Under the pieces are notes generated by a model. It made no database searches and was not told the DNA's origin. It saw only the letters and a program-made list of their open reading frames with translations. A program made the translations under genes and the position numbers. From IMG/VR virus record IMGVR_UViG_3300005805_000360, positions 1-28,105 of that record: a stretch of DNA of 28,105 nucleotides, one strand, 5' to 3'. Positions 2,352 through 19,155 of this stretch are shown here, in pieces. How positions within the stretch are numbered: position 1 is the first letter of the stretch; each line of letters begins with the position of its first letter. The stretch comes from a virus. Taxonomy: Duplodnaviria; Caudoviricetes.

Positions 2352-2593
2352 CAGATTGGCAATCGCGATCCAGTACGTTTCATGAGATTAAGGGAAGTCG
2401 CTTCAGCGGAAAGCAGCTTGCGCATTGTAGGAGTCATGAGCTTTGACACGCTTTCGAATTCGAGCCCAGTCTTTTCACACACATCTGTAATAGCTTCTAG
2501 ATAGCTCATTCGCTTTTCGGAAATACGAAATTCTACCATGCTGCAGAATGTGTTTGTACTCAATATGCTTGCTACTTGCTGAGATTCATTCAC
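2351..2593 (-). CDS. gp33: Late-promoter transcription coactivator gp33
   Basis: SYLEAITDVCEKTGLEFESVSKLMTPTMRKLLSAEATSLNL matches the gp33 pattern; synteny with gp59 and gp32. Confidence 0.88.
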   Translation of the reverse strand: MNESQQVASILSTNTFCSMVEFRISEKRMSYLEAITDVCEKTGLEFESVSKLMTPTMRKLLSAEATSLNLMKRTGSRLPI

Positions 2594-3003
2594 TTATCAT
2601 ATCCTTCGTATGGAGTTTGCGGACGACGAGTTTCTTCAAGCGCACCGAGAATCCCAGTTGCTCCGCCGTGATCTTTACGAACGATATCTTCAGATAATGC
2701 TTCTGGATAATATAGTTCTAATGCGACGCAATCTTGGATGCAAACAAATTTATGAAATTCGCCAGGACGAACAGTAGTAAAGTCACCTGCTCTGAGAACA
2801 GTGATGTCGGTGAGCTTGTAATTACTTTTTGATACATGAATTTCCAACACTCCGCTGATGACATAGAATCCGTTCCACTTATGTTCATGCTTATGCTCCG
2901 AGCAACGATAGCCAGCCTTGATGTTAATCTTATGCAGTTCGACCAAGCTGTTCTGAATAAGAACGCTCGTGTCTCCCCAAACTTTTCCTACGATATTAGC
3001 CAC
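2590..3003 (-). CDS. Cupin-domain protein (sugar isomerase-like)
   Basis: GKVWG start and cupin motifs SEHKHEHKWNGFYVISG and GDFTTVRPGEFHKF. Confidence 0.75.
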   Translation of the reverse strand: MANIVGKVWGDTSVLIQNSLVELHKINIKAGYRCSEHKHEHKWNGFYVISGVLEIHVSKSNYKLTDITVLRAGDFTTVRPGEFHKFVCIQDCVALELYYPEALSEDIVRKDHGGATGILGALEETRRPQTPYEGYDK

Positions 3004-3823
3004 GATTCAAACTCCGCTTTGAGATATAATCCAACTCAACTATATCATATAGTAGTTTCTCGAAGTTGTCAAGACGAATCATATTTGGACCATCACTAGG
3101 CGCATTGTCTGGATCATCATGAACTTCCATGAACAATGCAGCAACACCAACAGCAACAGCAGCGCGAGCCATGGTAGAAACATACTGTCGTTGTCCGCCA
3201 GAACTTGTGCCATTACCACCAGGAAGCTGAACAGCATGAGTACAATCCATAACGACTGGATAGTTCATCTGCTTCATAATCTCAAGTGATCTCATATCAA
3301 CGACTAGATTGTTATATCCAAACGTGGTGCCTCGTTCAGTGACCATGATCTTATTGCAGCCGAACTTCTCGAGCTTCTTTACTACATTGGTCATTTCTTG
3401 AGGCGAAAGGAATTGTCCTTTCTTTACGTTGACCGGTCGTCCGCTTTCAGCAGCAGCTTGAAGGAGATCAGTCTGTCGGCAGAGGAACGCAGGGATCTGA
3501 ATGATATCAGCATTAACTGCATCACATTGCCAGGATTCGTGAACGTCCGTGAGTACTTGGATACCCCGACCACGGACGGCCTCCATTCCGTAAAACGCCT
3601 CGTCGAAGCCGCTACCTCTGTAACTATCTGCGGAACTTCGATTCGCTTTATCGAAAGAGGTCTTATAGATGAAGTTGATTTCACTATCAAACTTTTGTCC
3701 GACAGTAGTACATGCTTCTTTCAGAGCAAGCGCCATTTCAACCGCATGTGCTGGATCTTCAAAGATACAAGGTCCAGCAATTATGCTTAGAGGTTTATCA
3801 TTTCCACAGTTATCATAGAACAT
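2996..3823 (-). CDS. kdsA: 3-deoxy-D-manno-octulosonate 8-phosphate (KDO8P) synthase
   Basis: IIAGPC, KTSFDKANRSS, LTDVHE, QIPAFLCRQTDLL, NVKKGQFL, ERGTTFGYNNLVVD, DCTHAVQLPG, SDGPN motifs. Start placed at the ATG at 3823, just after the upstream stop. Confidence 0.95.
   Translation of the reverse strand: MFYDNCGNDKPLSIIAGPCIFEDPAHAVEMALALKEACTTVGQKFDSEINFIYKTSFDKANRSSADSYRGSGFDEAFYGMEAVRGRGIQVLTDVHESWQCDAVNADIIQIPAFLCRQTDLLQAAAESGRPVNVKKGQFLSPQEMTNVVKKLEKFGCNKIMVTERGTTFGYNNLVVDMRSLEIMKQMNYPVVMDCTHAVQLPGGNGTSSGGQRQYVSTMARAAVAVGVAALFMEVHDDPDNAPSDGPNMIRLDNFEKLLYDIVELDYISKRSLNRG
3044..3072 (-). promoter_or_regulatory. Sigma70-type promoter inside the kdsA 3' end, upstream of cupin-gp33-gp59
   Basis: TTGACA(3072-3067)-17 nt-TATGAT(3049-3044). 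Confidence 0.6.
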
Positions 3824-3825
3824 GT

Positions 3826-4437
3826 TTAATCCCACAAATTTTGATAGTATTTACCAAACAAGCGCAAACCATTAGTCATGCGATCCTGAACTACTTTACG
3901 ACCTTCCCAATCAACCTTACCTTCAGAAGCTTCTACCTGCAACGTGTGGAACGCATCATCCCAATCAGTATTGATTGTTTCGAACGTCCAGATCATTTCA
4001 TCGAGAACCCAATCCCAACGATCAAAATGAAATTCGTCTGTATCCCATTCTTCTGTTTTAGGTTTAGCAGAGGTGGAGCGAATATGCTCAGGAACATCCT
4101 CGTCAGTTATATATGGCGCACCATGCTTTGTTGCTTTGAGCTGCACAAGCATAGGATGAATGATATAAGCGAGAGTAGAGTCCATAGACCATGTGTCGTA
4201 AGGATCGATACGAATCTTTACTTTCCGCTTCTTACGCTCGTGGATCCAATTACAGAACTTCCCGACGCATGTACCGCTGAGCCACTTACCAAACTTATCG
4301 CACGCTCTATAATCCCAACGATTATATATCGCAGGATCGTCAGAAGAAATGCCTCGACGATCAACCCAAAAGAAGATTTTGTCTGCGATCTGATATGGTC
4401 CGATCCAGTTTGTGTAAGGACCAATGCGAACTTTCAT
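3826..4437 (-). CDS. Hypothetical Trp-rich phage protein
   Basis: Likely start MKVRIG at 4437 with a GGAG RBS; the longer ORF-track start runs into the tRNA. Confidence 0.75.
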   Translation of the reverse strand: MKVRIGPYTNWIGPYQIADKIFFWVDRRGISSDDPAIYNRWDYRACDKFGKWLSGTCVGKFCNWIHERKKRKVKIRIDPYDTWSMDSTLAYIIHPMLVQLKATKHGAPYITDEDVPEHIRSTSAKPKTEEWDTDEFHFDRWDWVLDEMIWTFETINTDWDDAFHTLQVEASEGKVDWEGRKVVQDRMTNGLRLFGKYYQNLWD

Positions 4438-14413: not shown

Positions 14414-15250
14414 TTAGGACATAAATGATTCTAGAGTATTAGAGAACTGTGAGCTCTGATGAGCTTTCTGCCACTGGATGCGGACTTCCTTACGATTATC
14501 CATTCCCATCTTACCCCACGAGCCTTCTTTCGTTTCGATCGACACGAACTGTGGGAAATACTTTCTGAGTTCTTCTGCAGCTTGCTCTTGTAGTTCTAAT
14601 GTACGGAATGTGGAATTTCCTCCGACATTGTTGTGAACATAGTTGAAGAAGAAGTTATAGAGGATAGCGTTCTTATGCCCTTTGGTGAGCATAGAAAGAG
14701 TGATCCAATAGTCTTCGTACAACTTAATCTTCGGATTCGCGCGATACATCCCATCGAATCGGATATCAGCTTCTTCCATCCAGTCGGTGCGCAATCCGTA
14801 TGTCGTGTATGCTCGACCAACTTCCTTGAAGTCTTCACGAACGTGATTGTTCCCGCCACGAGCAGAAAACCCAACCTGCATGTAAGAGTCGAGCATCTTG
14901 TCTAATCTATCATACATCATCATGAATAGAGGTTCTGGCATATCGTTGTATTGCTTCAACTCTGTATCGCGCCAACCAAACGTAGCGAGATCGTCGATGA
15001 ACCAGACCTTTCCCTTTCCGATAGCAGGATGCTCAATACAACGTTGACGGATATCAGCAATCCCATCAATATCCATTGGATTACCAATGATTCGAATAGT
15101 TTCGGGGATATGCTTACGAAGTTCTTCTACACGATCCTCGCGTGTGAACATGTATACTTGATCATGAAGCGAAGCAGGAATCTGAAACACAGCTTTCTGC
15201 TTATCCTCGCGCATGAACGTTGTTATGATAATCTTAGGGGTTGAATTCAT
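14414..15250 (-). CDS. TET-associated-type (GREB1-like, GT-A fold) glycosyltransferase
   Basis: IIITTFMR start, GIADIRQ, acidic WFIDD motif, YEDYWITLSMLTKG, GGNSTFRT, L...FPQFV, EVRIQWQKA; lies downstream of a TET/JBP gene. Confidence 0.8.
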   Translation of the reverse strand: MNSTPKIIITTFMREDKQKAVFQIPASLHDQVYMFTREDRVEELRKHIPETIRIIGNPMDIDGIADIRQRCIEHPAIGKGKVWFIDDLATFGWRDTELKQYNDMPEPLFMMMYDRLDKMLDSYMQVGFSARGGNNHVREDFKEVGRAYTTYGLRTDWMEEADIRFDGMYRANPKIKLYEDYWITLSMLTKGHKNAILYNFFFNYVHNNVGGNSTFRTLELQEQAAEELRKYFPQFVSIETKEGSWGKMGMDNRKEVRIQWQKAHQSSQFSNTLESFMS

Positions 15251-15590
15251 CTACAAAGGTTTCCAATGTCATTGCTTTATCATCGATATACCACACACCG
15301 TATGGCTTACCAAACACGAGCTGATCGAACGGAACGTCATTGCGATCAAGCCATTCTTCAGTGATTTTACTGAGCTTGCTGAAAGCAAACTCCACATCAT
15401 TTCCACACGTGCGCATGTGACGCGCAGTAAGGATGGTGATGTACCAACCCTTATCACGCGCCTCACGAAGTTTATTGATTGTTGCTGGGATAGGTGTCGA
15501 TGACGCATAACGAACGACTGAACTCTCGATCAGAAGATCGTTCATACACAGAGTATGATCTAGATCAACGACTAGGCTTTGATCAAACAA
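15234..15590 (-). CDS. Minimal HAD-superfamily phosphatase (capsule-biosynthesis EcbF/BcbF-like)
   Basis: Motif I VVDLDHTL, motif II ILTARHM, motifs III/IV FGKPYGVWYIDDKA. Probable TTG start at 15590 (the ORF track extends to 15659). Confidence 0.85.
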   Translation of the reverse strand: MFDQSLVVDLDHTLCMNDLLIESSVVRYASSTPIPATINKLREARDKGWYITILTARHMRTCGNDVEFAFSKLSKITEEWLDRNDVPFDQLVFGKPYGVWYIDDKAMTLETFVDEFNP

Positions 15591-17157
15591 TTCCGCTGTC
15601 TGAGCGCGCCTGACGATAGAGGGCATAATACAACTCCTGATTTCTTTCACTGTGATCATGTAATGGTATCATAGTCAAAAACAGAGACGCTGTCAAGAAC
15701 AAAGTGATCCGCCAAGTCTTTTCACCATACTTATCGATGAATAGAGTCTTATATGCGTTCCTGGCTGCTTCTTTGCCAGCATCGAAGTAGATAGTCTTGC
15801 CATCTTTATTTAGATAAAGCTCTGCATCCACATAATCATATGGATAATAGGCTGAATGAGTAATCTTGGCTAAGTCGTATAGGATATTACCATAAGCTTC
15901 ACCACGAGGATCAATCAGCTTGATTTGCTTGCTGCCGGGATGATAAAAGATGTTCGAGAAGCATAGATCACCGTGAAACAAAGAATCTTGGAAAACATCA
16001 AACTCACCGTCGGCGGTCATATTAGCAAACTTCGACAGAAATTCTGAATCAAATTCTGAATCATCTTCATACGCGAACTTATGACTGATCGTAATGTATC
16101 TTTCGTAGTTCTTAGTCGCTACATTATGAAAGAACTGAGGCTTGCCTGGCTTGAAGTAGAACTTGAATTTATCAGTCACTTTGAATAACTTCGTGTAGAT
16201 TTCAGCCCAGAAGATAGGATCTGATTCGAGATATAGATACAGCTCGCGAAGAGTCGGACTATCGACACGTTCCATTGTGTATGTCGGACGATCACCATAC
16301 AAGTTCTTATCCAGGATGCGAGGCGTCATCACCTTAATTGAAGTCGGAAGATTATCATACCAATTAGCTTCAGCATGAATCTTGCTGGGTTGTACGATAG
16401 ACGTCTTCGTGATCGTAGCACCATCGCTGGATGGAAACAATTGATTGAACGATCGAGAATTCTTTATTCCACGATTCTCAAGATACTCCTGCAACGTACC
16501 AAAGTCAACGATCTTAACTGATTTAGAGTAGATTGATTCTTTCTTCATGTATCGAGTCATCGCAGAAGATATCTGAACTTCTCCTTCTTTTGTGCCATGA
16601 ATTGCGTCAATCATACAACTACGAAACCAAGAAGCATCAGTGAAATAATAAACTCCGCTAACAGCAGTATCTGTTGCTGGCATATCTCGCGGTTTGTCGT
16701 GGAATTTAACTACAGCTCCTGCGTTGAGTTCAGCCATACACCAGCGTTCCCAATCAGGAACCTTTTGTACTGAAATCCAAGATGTACGAGAATCAGTAAA
16801 CGGTGCGTGATTCACAACGATATCACTGAGTAGAATCAATACAGCTTCTTCACCGATGTCTTCCGGAAGACCAGAATAGATAGAAACACCAGGACCATCC
16901 CTTCCCGCAGCTTCAGCGTATTCCGCAAAGCGAACTCGCGAGTCGTCAGGAAAATACATTCCGACGATCTCGCGAATCTTATTTGCTTGATGTCCGACAA
17001 CGATACATACTTCACGAGCACCGCTATCAAATGCGAGCCTAATGTTATGTACGATGATAGGAATATCTTGATACGGTAAAACGCACTTCGGATAGTTCTT
17101 ACCTAGTTCATTGAAACGAACACCACGTCCAGCGGCAGGAATCACACAATACATCAT
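15583..17157 (-). CDS. Fusion of sugar-phosphate nucleotidyltransferase and APH/choline-kinase-like phosphotransferase
   Basis: N-terminal IPAAGRGVRF..LGKNYPKCVLP, LSD, DKP, SGVYYF, GEVQIS, DFGT; C-terminal RSFN, EANWY, FHGDLCFSNI, KLIDPRG, YDLAKI. Confidence 0.88.
   Translation of the reverse strand: MMYCVIPAAGRGVRFNELGKNYPKCVLPYQDIPIIVHNIRLAFDSGAREVCIVVGHQANKIREIVGMYFPDDSRVRFAEYAEAAGRDGPGVSIYSGLPEDIGEEAVLILLSDIVVNHAPFTDSRTSWISVQKVPDWERWCMAELNAGAVVKFHDKPRDMPATDTAVSGVYYFTDASWFRSCMIDAIHGTKEGEVQISSAMTRYMKKESIYSKSVKIVDFGTLQEYLENRGIKNSRSFNQLFPSSDGATITKTSIVQPSKIHAEANWYDNLPTSIKVMTPRILDKNLYGDRPTYTMERVDSPTLRELYLYLESDPIFWAEIYTKLFKVTDKFKFYFKPGKPQFFHNVATKNYERYITISHKFAYEDDSEFDSEFLSKFANMTADGEFDVFQDSLFHGDLCFSNIFYHPGSKQIKLIDPRGEAYGNILYDLAKITHSAYYPYDYVDAELYLNKDGKTIYFDAGKEAARNAYKTLFIDKYGEKTWRITLFLTASLFLTMIPLHDHSERNQELYYALYRQARSDSGIV
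15668..15696 (-). promoter_or_regulatory. Candidate internal promoter for the HAD and glycosyltransferase genes
   Basis: TTGACA(15696-15691)-17 nt-TATGAT(15673-15668) in the 3' end of the kinase gene. Confidence 0.55.
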
Positions 17158-17167
17158 AAGCCCTTTT

Positions 17168-18553
17168 CTAATGAACTTGATCAAGTCCTAATTTATATAG
17201 GATTCCGTTTGCTTCTTCAGCAAATCCATTATGTCCTAAGAAATTAGCCCACTCTTCGGTGTCCCACATGTTAGGAGAAACACCATTCCATCCTTGATGC
17301 CATAGCTTATGTTCTTTATCATCACGACGAGAATAAACAAATCGCCTGCGCGTATCCTCATACTTTGCTGAACCGCAATTCAACATAGACTCTCGGAAAT
17401 ACATCACGACCGACATACGCTCGAAGCCTTCTTCATGATTGAAAGCAGGGGAGTTAGAATGGATACGATGAGCGTTCATCATAATCAAATCACCGGCGCG
17501 AATGTTAGCTGCCACACGAAACTCCGGAAAGCACAAATAGAATCCGTCATAGTCTTTGCCGTTATCTAAGACTAGAAGATTACTGAATCCTTTCGGATTT
17601 TCATGCGACTCCCACGACTCACATAGATCACCGACGTCACGATGCGCTGCTGTACGGAAATCGCGATTGATAGTTAGAGTGGTGTAAACAGTATCGCCTA
17701 TGCGCCAATCTTCACCGAGTTGTTCCATAGCAGCTGCTTGTCCAGCCCAACGCACAGGCACTTCGCGCTTGAACACTTCGTTTGCTGCGTGAAACAGAGG
17801 GAGAGAAGTCTTATACAAATCTTTATGATTTGCGCTCCAACCTGTTTCACGGCAGAATGGAATGCGTGGATATCTATCCATGAATCCACCGACTCCCGAA
17901 CGAACACCATTAGCATATGTCGAGGAAGAAATTAATTCATCAAGAATAAACTGAGATCTTTCTACTCGTTCAGTAGCGGATAGATCTTTGATACTATGAA
18001 ACCATTCGTCAAAATTAAATTCTGTGGTCTTATGAACAATCCAGATAGCTCCAGATCCAATCTCTGCGAGATTCTTATTAGCACCAGAGCCTCTTCCCTG
18101 CAAAGGCTTATTCGGAGTGTTCTCGTATATTTCTAGCAGACGATCATTACCATTAACAGTAGGTGGACTACCAGCCATAATATATTGAAGAACAGCCTTT
18201 TCTCGCTGTGTGACCCAACGACGCTGTCCTTGACCATCTGGAAGTTTTTGGAATTCAGTATCCCTCTCGATACCAGCAGCCAAACCACGATTGTCTGACA
18301 TCATTGCGCCAGAACGAAGAGCGGTGTATGCGCTATCTGTCATTTCCTTAGAAAAAACATTCTTACGAAACTTACACAACAAATTCTTTTCGCTGTGTGT
18401 TTCGCCCATCATGATTTGAAGTGGCGTCAGTGGCTCGTACACATCAGTGTCTTCATTCAAGACAAGATCGTAACAATCGTGATCCAAAAACTTACCCAGA
18501 ACATGATCCATCTGATCGCGGAAAGACTTTTCGAGATAGATTACTTTTACCAT
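17168..18553 (-). CDS. TET/JBP-family 2-oxoglutarate/Fe(II) nucleic-acid dioxygenase
   Basis: YTTLTINRDFRTAAHRDVGD (HxD), YLCFPEFRVAANIRAGDLIMMNAHRIHSN (distal His), ERMSVVMYFRESM (2OG-binding Arg), and DRYPRIPFCRET. Confidence 0.88.
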   Translation of the reverse strand: MVKVIYLEKSFRDQMDHVLGKFLDHDCYDLVLNEDTDVYEPLTPLQIMMGETHSEKNLLCKFRKNVFSKEMTDSAYTALRSGAMMSDNRGLAAGIERDTEFQKLPDGQGQRRWVTQREKAVLQYIMAGSPPTVNGNDRLLEIYENTPNKPLQGRGSGANKNLAEIGSGAIWIVHKTTEFNFDEWFHSIKDLSATERVERSQFILDELISSSTYANGVRSGVGGFMDRYPRIPFCRETGWSANHKDLYKTSLPLFHAANEVFKREVPVRWAGQAAAMEQLGEDWRIGDTVYTTLTINRDFRTAAHRDVGDLCESWESHENPKGFSNLLVLDNGKDYDGFYLCFPEFRVAANIRAGDLIMMNAHRIHSNSPAFNHEEGFERMSVVMYFRESMLNCGSAKYEDTRRRFVYSRRDDKEHKLWHQGWNGVSPNMWDTEEWANFLGHNGFAEEANGILYKLGLDQVH

Positions 18554-18576: not shown

Positions 18577-19155
18577 CTATGTATGCTTCAGAAGATTTTC
18601 ATATGTGTTATAATACACATTTATAGCACAAATTTTGCTAATTGTCAAGTCACTTGGAAAAAGAAAGATGAAGTCTACATCAGGATTTTTATTCACGAGC
18701 CATGTCAAATAATTTAGGCGACCAGGATTATCTGCTGCGTTCGCTCGCGTGCTAGGACCATAATTATCGGAGCCATCATAGATGTTCGAAAGGAGCTGAT
18801 TGTCATCTTCAATAAGAAAATCAAATCCCAAACAAATTAACTGATCATGACCAGCCTTGATAGATTCGATCATAGCATTCATTCCTGCGTTGCTACGAGG
18901 CCTCCCGATATTGCATTCGGAAGGCTCCCATCGCTCATCGATAGGCGGAATAACAACTTTCGATGACGGAAAATCGCTACGCTCTATCTCTTGAATAATG
19001 CCGTCATCAATAGCAACAAGCACATCAGGAATAGAATGATCCGGAAAATCGCGATACAAGGCGTTACAGCCATATATCGTCCCATATTGTTTGAGTCTAG
19101 ATAAATCTATTCCCTCGCGAGAAGTGCCATTACCAATGATGAAAGCAGTATTCAT
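18577..19155 (-). CDS. DUF115/Maf-like (GNGxS motif) putative glycosyltransferase-fold protein
   Basis: AFIIGNGTSR, YGCNALYRD, PDVLVAID, SNAGMNA, ICLGFDF motifs. Confidence 0.65.
   Translation of the reverse strand: MNTAFIIGNGTSREGIDLSRLKQYGTIYGCNALYRDFPDHSIPDVLVAIDDGIIQEIERSDFPSSKVVIPPIDERWEPSECNIGRPRSNAGMNAMIESIKAGHDQLICLGFDFLIEDDNQLLSNIYDGSDNYGPSTRANAADNPGRLNYLTWLVNKNPDVDFIFLFPSDLTISKICAINVYYNTYENLLKHT
18620..18648 (-). promoter_or_regulatory. Candidate promoter for the TET/JBP operon
   Basis: TTGACA(18648-18643)-17 nt-TATAAA; the -10 region TATAAATG is also a 7/8 match to the T4 late promoter TATAAATA. Confidence 0.6.

Follow-up and report, generated by a model that had tools for sequence, protein, structure and literature searches.

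The strategy of hydroxylating replicated phage DNA with a TET/JBP-family dioxygenase and glycosylating the product is, in its general form, already published. In the clusters of Pyle (bioRxiv 10.1101/2023.12.21.572611) and Burke (PMC8256090), as far as the accessible parts of both reports describe them, a 5mYOX enzyme and a glycosyltransferase (GT) act on cytosine, with a C5-methyltransferase (C5-MTase) encoded adjacently. One of these clusters, contig 53 of Pyle's subclass III, is described there as using a HAD/APH enzyme, a nucleotidyltransferase (NTase) with CTP, and a GT to produce mono- and di-heptosyl 5-hydroxymethylcytosine (hmC). A phage-made pentose donor is known from the AfhE/AfhF proteins of HY126, RB69, DLP3 and Maestro, which, according to the available sections of Lee (PMC13326640), form UDP-D-arabinofuranose from arabinose-5-phosphate (Ara5P) via the 1,5-bisphosphate. 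The locus considered here is a four-gene cassette in the IMG/VR virus record IMGVR_UViG_3300005805_000360, whose positions 1 to 28,105 (the window, the whole stretch of DNA analysed) form a 28-kb fragment of a T4-like phage that encodes gp32, gp59, RNase H, PhoH, ThyX, MazG and KdsA. The cassette comprises a TET/JBP dioxygenase, an NTase-kinase fusion, a small HAD phosphatase and a TET-associated glycosyltransferase (TAGT), and can be read from its sequence, with moderate confidence, as producing glycosylated 5-hydroxymethyluracil (hmU) after replication from a phage-made nucleoside diphosphate (NDP)-furanose. It works like contig 53 and AfhE/AfhF but belongs to neither, and its particular combination of enzymes differs from those of the known systems.

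The four genes lie intact on the minus strand where a preliminary description of the sequence had placed them. The dioxygenase (17168..18553, minus strand, 461 aa) matches Tet_JBP (PF12851) with 52.7 bits against a cut-off of 34.9 in a profile search, and its residues H304-x-D306, H365 and R379 are invariant across 83 homologues. The top Foldseek matches of its AlphaFold model (pLDDT 90.4, 83-row alignment) are CcTet, CMD1, NgTET1 and TET2; a phmmer search against PDB sequences gave 3 chance matches, the relationship being visible by the fold search instead. The profile score, the HxD...H...R set and the TET-type fold together bear out the assignment of the protein as a TET/JBP (5mYOX) Fe/2-oxoglutarate (2OG) dioxygenase (hereafter TET), one of a long, T4-like subfamily. 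In several other phages the TETs carry the label 'SNF2 DNA repair protein'.

The second gene (15583..17157, minus strand) encodes an NTase (residues ~1-230) joined to an APH-fold sugar-phosphate kinase (~231-523), as indicated by Pfam/NCBIfam profiles and the structure model. Its N-terminal part matches NTP_transferase/NTP_transf_3 above the cut-off and its C-terminal part APH (PF01636) at E 0.0012, below the cut-off, while G9, G11, R13, K23, D111 and D217 (523-aa numbering) and the motifs HGD..N and DPRG are invariant or nearly so among 87 homologues. The AlphaFold model (pLDDT 93.3, 87-row alignment) matches the sugar nucleotidyltransferases RmlA/GalU/GlmU with Z 24.6 and APH and choline kinases with Z 18.8. 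The earlier claim of a fusion with intact motifs is thus confirmed by the conserved residues and the confident fold matches. No solved AfhE-like fusion appears among the structural matches. Compared directly, the fusion and AfhE-type proteins share 22% identity (E 1.6e-7); a tblastn search of phages with the fusion left RB69 and Maestro undetected at E 1e-5, so that this homology is visible by direct comparison alone.

The HAD phosphatase (15234..15626, minus strand, 130 aa) falls in the EcbF/BcbF/AfhF family. It matches the EcbF-BcbF model TIGR01689 (E 2e-16) with 60 bits, below the cut-off of 162, and is therefore a homologue rather than a formal member; the motifs DxD, T, K and DD align with its relatives. 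It also matches PDB entry 1XPJ (E 2e-12) and the RB69 gp51-like protein 9IQW (E 0.0017), and is 32% identical to the AfhF-type proteins of Maestro/RB69. The last gene (14414..15250, minus strand, 278 aa) encodes the TAGT, a GT-A enzyme matching PF20691 with 30.4 bits (cut-off 27.5) and phrog_842 with E 4e-42, and its top three ESM Atlas clusters are viral TAGTs with a score of 0.98. On these three grounds it groups, as anticipated, with viral DNA glycosyltransferases and not with capsule GTs. It bears an R..DD..EDY motif, corresponding to the R..DD..ED[YF] motif of DNA GT-A enzymes in the accessible text of Pyle (bioRxiv 10.1101/2023.12.21.572611). Its C-terminal tail (..TLESFMS; 14414..14443, minus strand) resembles T4-type sliding-clamp-binding tails. 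This pattern is shown by 12 of the 19 distinct TAGT12 tails and by 31 of the 74 TET tails, but by none of the 39 HAD or 45 kinase-fusion tails; the window's own TET is without it. Its restriction to TAGT and TET fits the predicted action at the replication fork.

The cassette recurs well beyond the window. Among 87 distinct full-length TET homologues, a set with many close kin and some contigs that end early, a fusion gene lies within 6 kb in 24, and fusion, HAD and TAGT together in 17. Five gene orders are found among the loci listed, those of the window clade, the DLP6 type, L086, L217 and S-CBWM1. The same four-gene synteny, for which the preliminary description had proposed a search, is therefore present in other phage genomes, including two cultured ones: DLP6, with the order TAGT-HAD-fusion-TET (identities 42, 38, 31 and 40%), and S-CBWM1, with TET-TAGT-HAD-NTase-APH, in which NTase and kinase are split. 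Among the IMG/VR matches listed, the DLP6 order is seen in L072-L075, L078 and L082, TET-TAGT-HAD-fusion in L086 and TAGT-fusion-HAD-TET in L217. In the DLP6 paper the fusion gene AAY80_029 (L001 10235-11926) is labelled a ModA ADP-ribosyltransferase, and the HAD gene preceding it (L001 9895-10275) carries no annotation.

The sugar-donor genes are also replaced as a unit. In L034 (5438-7873), L036 (7818-10313), L171 and L187 the genes after the TET of the same locus (75% identical to the window's) are a GalE epimerase and two TAGTs, a natural swap whose layout is that of Pyle subclass II, as given in the available text (bioRxiv 10.1101/2023.12.21.572611), and in C48C1 a UDP-galactopyranose mutase lies two genes after the TET. 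Fusion genes without a TET are, among the loci listed, mostly found beside a thymidylate-synthase homologue and a GT-B-like gene. Of 25 aligned synthases, those of RB69 and Maestro alone have N at position 169, and most read as dCMP hydroxymethylases by the residue code (D169N) that distinguishes hydroxymethylase from 5-hydroxy-dCMP synthase in the accessible part of Lee 2026 (PMC13326640). Because of the shared synteny, the module swap and the synthase/GT-B contexts, the kinase/HAD/NTase trio appears to behave as a donor module for DNA glycosyltransferases.

Several individual loci vary these arrangements. L176 has a different set again behind the TET, an amino acid:DNA transferase (ADDT) and a P-loop kinase, and one relative (L028 8086-9198) has an additional GT-B gene after the TAGT, possibly for a second sugar. 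In Enterococcus phage 9183 (L005 8412-14424), L006, L053-L066 and L071, fusion and HAD lie, with no isomerase, beside dCMP-hydroxymethylase-like genes and a GT-B; these loci, in cultured phages, would represent a pre-replicative hmC pathway, probably with the same sugar as the window cassette, and several have a C5-MTase-like gene directly after the GT. Ralstonia phage RSL1 (L007 7858-16252) combines three TAGTs, a kinase, an NTase, an APS kinase, a sulfotransferase, an hmdU kinase helical domain and a dUMP hydroxymethylase, which points to a complex and possibly sulfated sugar modification of hmU.

From the family assignments and synteny we infer the base, sugar, nucleotide and function as follows. 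First, the dioxygenase would act on replicated DNA and turn some of its thymines into hmU by hydroxylating their 5-methyl group; since the window keeps ThyX, normal dTMP would still be made. Next, the APH domain would phosphorylate the anomeric hydroxyl of a furanose phosphate drawn straight from host metabolism, the HAD would strip the terminal phosphate from the resulting bisphosphate to leave the anomeric monophosphate, and the N-terminal domain would couple the sugar to a nucleoside monophosphate, most likely from UTP, to give the NDP-furanose. The likely donor chemistry is fixed by the homology of fusion and HAD to AfhE/AfhF, for which that chemistry has been demonstrated. Finally, the TAGT, probably tethered to the sliding clamp, would move the sugar to the hydroxymethyl group, as its family, the synteny and the module swap suggest. 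The product, analogous to the base J of trypanosomes, would block restriction enzymes. The modification is probably partial by analogy, because tested T-dioxygenases reached 1-35% in E. coli in the data available. A review table, as far as accessible, lists DLP6 DNA as restriction resistant; to be set against this, the digest sentence in the available text of the DLP6 paper itself is garbled.

The identity of the sugar is graded as follows. Fructose, activated as Fru6P to Fru-2,6-P2, Fru-2-P and NDP-fructofuranose, is the foremost single candidate and is proposed tentatively; D-arabinose or another aldopentose is possible but somewhat doubtful, another ketose such as xylulose, ribulose or sedoheptulose is unlikely, and some other sugar more unlikely still. 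A ketofuranose is preferred over an aldopentose with slight confidence. The full combination, in which an NDP-ketofuranose such as NDP-fructofuranose is made from a universal host sugar phosphate and placed on TET-made hmU as a ketosylated base-J analogue, is a conceivable though rather doubtful outcome.

The lean towards a ketose comes from the bacterial relatives. Among 579 bacterial and archaeal relatives, the best 80 are for the most part trios of HAD, kinase and separate NTase in lipopolysaccharide (LPS) and capsule loci. The E. coli locus L242 is K4-like, its GT matching chondroitin synthase with E 1e-155, and it contains HAD, kinase and NTase. The K4 capsule carries fructose, for which kfoE is needed (PMC2889854 among the sources, as far as available). 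In L242 (9053-11720), a 522-aa gene couples an intact APH kinase domain to an NTase-like N-terminus that is degenerate. By its gene order and length we take this gene to be kfoE, an assumption that counts against the strength of the argument; if it is correct, the protein looks like a donor-activating kinase and not the fructosyltransferase that KfoE is described as. Fructose is also carried by Pasteurella B/E capsules and the Vibrio cholerae core, and xylulose by some O-antigens. Since the HAD/APH enzyme and CTP transferase of contig 53 gave heptose, sedoheptulose is a further candidate.

Comparison of the proteins gives the same direction. In BLASTP, the kinase matches the K4-locus protein (27% identity) with E 1e-23 vs 3e-6 for AfhE, with profile scores of 167 vs 65 bits, and the HAD matches its K4-locus counterpart with E 9e-19 vs 5e-11 and 7e-7 for AfhF-types. 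Of 57 conserved kinase residues, 41 are kept in the K4-locus protein, 42-43 in five other bacterial proteins and 46 in DLP6, against 28 and 25 in AfhE-types (RB69 gp52 being without the first four positions), although these residues were chosen within the window's own family and rapid evolution of AfhE could by itself lower the count. The six bacterial proteins share with the window the pocket residues HGD[LF]CFSN, K..H[ST] and M[IL]PLH, which AfhE-types replace with HGDPNFSN for the first, Y for H433 and [LA]GYF for the last.

The closest competitor on the sugar, and a sub-case of the glycosyl-hmU reading, is a donor of UDP-D-arabinofuranose made from host Ara5P as by AfhE/AfhF, which would give arabinosyl-hmU and is regarded as rather unlikely. 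AfhE/AfhF are the one biochemically characterised homologue pair, and they have the same fused architecture and HAD family as the window. Further points likewise tell against a ketose: the IQ-TREE maximum-likelihood tree, built from 27 of 125 kinase domains picked by hand, has a 96/99 split that separates the bacterial proteins from the window and, on a very long branch of 3.28, the AfhE pair, and FastTree path lengths are about equal (4.97-4.99 vs 5.14-5.25). The trees omit S-CBWM1 gp12 and an Agathobaculum HAD-kinase, whose matched domains are shorter than 180 aa. The phylogeny, which does not separate the window kinase from AfhE, does not settle the sugar. In addition, KdsA in the window makes a Gram-negative host that uses Ara5P likely, so Ara5P is probably present in the host and the phage may manage without an isomerase. 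In contrast, AfhE-types swap residues conserved in the window family and the bacterial set, and both BLASTP and profile scores favour the latter. Moreover, no Ara5P isomerase was found in the window, itself a 28-kb fragment, or in eight further records, namely DLP6, S-CBWM1, G001-G004 (G002, G003 and G004 incomplete), Enterococcus phage 9183 and XG4, one of these phages infecting a Gram-positive host; the isomerase of RB69, the control, was detected.

The base, which the preliminary description had left open together with the sugar, is probably thymine, judging from the dioxygenase and its neighbours, and a ketofuranose, to which the evidence leans, was not listed there. A C5-MTase is adjacent at none of 126 TET loci and is absent from the window, from the complete genomes of DLP6, S-CBWM1, C48C1 and Cr30, and from four partial records. 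The immediately neighbouring C5-MTase that characterises clade A/B 5mC (5-methylcytosine) dioxygenases is thus not found in this family. The same lack of an adjacent C5-MTase is seen in the T-dioxygenases of clades C1 and C2, in the accessible sections of O'Toole (PMC13229309), where ADDT, P-loop kinase and GATase genes are linked to clade C1, and 30 of 87 TET homologues related to the window's neighbour one of these three. By eye, against half of the sequences in the available Dataset S11 of that report, the window TET seems to resemble C1 more than C2, with C1-like motifs and a C-terminal extension. No ThyA-type hydroxymethylase (PF00303) was found in five of five records searched.

In the competing view, which is unlikely, the same pathway would act on 5mC supplied by a distant phage C5-MTase and give glycosyl-hmC as in the Burke and Pyle clusters. 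An intact C5-MTase is encoded 60-100 kb away in both G001 (90%) and G004 (78%), which are the most complete of the close relatives, so that 5mC is available to this clade, and T-dioxygenases can also oxidise 5mC according to the accessible data (PMC13229309; TET89). The 4-mer most depleted in the window is GGCC (44 vs 64 expected), which is weak evidence, and the 4-mer and 6-mer counts of the window contain no clear modification motif. Thymine is further weighed down by the size of the window TET, 461 aa with large insertions vs ~290-330 aa in the tested T-dioxygenases, and by the ParB dependence or inactivity of several clade C1 enzymes in the available part of PMC13229309, since ParB (PF02195) was not found in five of five records, two of them complete genomes. 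Against 5mC stand the C5-MTase-free complete genomes of DLP6 and S-CBWM1, both with the full cassette, the absence of an adjacent C5-MTase throughout the family, and its proximity to hmU-specific enzymes.

In G001 (L038 1441-3260) the C5-MTase is followed by a CmoA-like S-adenosylmethionine-dependent protein, recognised by eye, next to a peptide deformylase and ~60 kb from the cassette. In Cr30 (L003 12196-16474), L185, L204, L219, L226 and L228 the TETs are linked to ADDT and myo-inositol-1-phosphate synthase, which hints at an inositol-modified thymine.

A third explanation, that the trio makes a donor for surface glycans (on virion proteins, host LPS or capsule) and merely neighbours the DNA-modification genes, is improbable. 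Its bacterial homologues do lie in LPS-core, O-antigen and capsule loci, the viral homologues L008, L068 and L069 lie in glycan islands with neither TET nor synthase, and the window has other glycan genes, namely KdsA, a GT-B, DUF7796 and an MptE-like protein. However, all five gene orders among the loci listed keep the trio in one unbroken run with TET and TAGT, epimerase and TAGT take its place at the same slot, and the TAGT groups with viral DNA glycosyltransferases and carries the clamp-like tail. Finally, the donor may be a polyol phosphate of LicC/TarI type, against which the top NTase matches are sugar-1-phosphate enzymes and the kinase and phosphatase pair fits anomeric activation.

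The preliminary description had likened the trio to HddA/GmhB/HddC. The logic of that comparison stands, and the GDP-heptose (Hdd) pathway itself is rejected, since the kinase has an APH fold (Z 18.8) and no SIS domain was found in five of five related genomes. HddA is a GHMP-fold kinase, and its pathway includes the SIS isomerase GmhA. The wider mechanism put forward there, post-replicative TET and TAGT action with a phage-made donor, is supported by synteny, swap and precedents, and its novelty was overstated: in the text accessible, a TET, HAD/APH, NTase and GT cluster has already been shown by Pyle to make heptosyl-hmC, and the NTase-kinase fusion with HAD is the architecture of AfhE/AfhF (Lee 2026, PMC13326640).

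Within this framework, the window cassette shares post-replicative TET oxidation followed by glycosylation with the Pyle and Burke clusters, and the R..DD..ED[YF] motif with Pyle's GT-A enzymes, but has no C5-MTase adjacent. Contig 53, known by description in the available text, has HAD fused to APH and a GT-B, whereas here NTase is fused to APH and the GT is a GT-A TAGT. With AfhE/AfhF, as presented in the accessible sections, the cassette has in common the NTase-APH fusion with intact NTase motifs, the small HAD and the order of kinase, phosphatase and pyrophosphorylase; the AfhE kinase is ~22% identical and differs in its pocket residues, and the AfhE/AfhF route acts before replication (5-hydroxy-dCMP synthase), with GT-B transferases and an Ara5P isomerase of its own, all three lacking from the window cassette. 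The C1/C2 T-dioxygenases measure ~290-330 aa and are in part ParB-linked in the sections of PMC13229309 covered, in contrast to the 461-aa ParB-free family; there, the Fig. 9 legend names APH and HAD among co-occurring domains, and neither a glycosylated hmU product nor a donor pathway is characterised. The closest bacterial homologues, the same gene trio in K4 kfo, EcbF/BcbF and Vibrio wav loci (kinase 27-31%, HAD 29-42%), have a kinase with a degenerate N-terminal domain (9-13 of 46 conserved residues), a separate NTase and an LPS or capsule acceptor, unlike the window fusion with its intact N-terminal NTase domain and no separate NTase in the cassette. No isomerase was seen beside these triplets among recurrent gene clusters. 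Trypanosome base J (JBP1/2 and JGT) follows the same course from T through hmU to an O-glycoside on DNA, with a GT-A of the same superfamily. It is built with host UDP-glucose, and the dedicated donor pathway of the window therefore points to a different sugar.

No published product of this four-gene cassette was found in the accessible literature, which leaves subscription journals mostly uncovered, and no published pentose or ketose on TET-made hmU, the search not being aimed directly at fructosylated DNA bases. By word-stem counts of the available text, Pyle contains no mention of pentose or arabinose and O'Toole none of arabinose. A fructose-like sugar, if true, would make a DNA base not yet described. 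The cassette predicts a specific modified base in a widespread T4-like phage group, which the cultured phages DLP6 and S-CBWM1 make directly accessible, and adds a ParB-free subfamily of 461 aa to the phage T-dioxygenases, few of whose downstream products are known. Swapping of the donor module behind a constant dioxygenase is what an arms race with modification-dependent nucleases would be expected to produce. A ketose, if true, would further reveal an activation route for the fructose branches of bacterial surface glycans: K4-type capsules and LPS cores would activate fructose by the same kinase/HAD/NTase chemistry, with KfoE being a kinase, not a fructosyltransferase.

The gene boundaries differ in part from those first proposed. 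The longest open reading frame (ORF) of the fusion, 15583-17184, gives 533 aa from a TTG at 17184, while its start is probably at 17154 or 17157 by sequence (523-524 aa; P0001 has 523 aa), so TET and fusion would abut and the overlap described earlier is not borne out. The HAD likewise has a longest ORF of 15234-15659 (141 aa), with the start probably at 15626 (130 aa), preceded by AGGAG as in relatives. The TTGACA-N17-TATAAA promoter candidate is indeed present (18620..18648, minus strand, inside the upstream 192-aa ORF) but poorly conserved: of 23 distinct regions upstream in relatives, 10 match it loosely and 2 have the exact -10 box. With the candidate so loosely kept, the genes set within a long co-oriented run and the next gene 11 nt past the TAGT stop codon, a self-contained operon is not established.

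Six TTGACA-17-TATAA[AT] sites lie on the minus strand of the window (8674, 11447, 13635, 14045, 18648 and 24589) against none on the plus strand, and are likely early promoters by pattern. A general promoter scan gave 13 sites vs 17 in shuffles, no excess; it demands T at position 6 and therefore missed the site at 18648. An internal site, TTGACA-N17-TATGAT (15668..15696, minus strand, ~40 nt before the HAD start, 11/12 consensus match), is kept in 10 of 10 relatives, which may reflect protein constraint because it overlies the conserved codons of LTASLFL.MIPLH. A T4 late promoter was considered as well and rejected, since TATAAATA does not occur in the window and TATAAAT[AG] lies upstream in only 3 of 23 relatives.

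Other genes of the window add to its glycan content. A 192-aa gene (18577-19155, minus strand) lies directly upstream of TET in nearly all close relatives (67-99% identity) and not beside TET in DLP6 or S-CBWM1. It has a GNGxS...GCNAxYRD motif and no Pfam match, and its nearest named Atlas cluster is MptE-like (34% of members). By resemblance it may be a CMP-sugar transferase, which is of note given KdsA in the window. At 2590-3835 (minus strand) the phage KdsA (KDO8P synthase), which scores above the NCBIfam cut-off, adjoins a cupin. Between 22911 and 27555 (minus strand), a GT-B glycosyltransferase, two DUF7796 proteins, a QueC-like PP-loop protein and a 2OG-Fe(II) oxygenase probably form a second set that modifies a glycan or protein.

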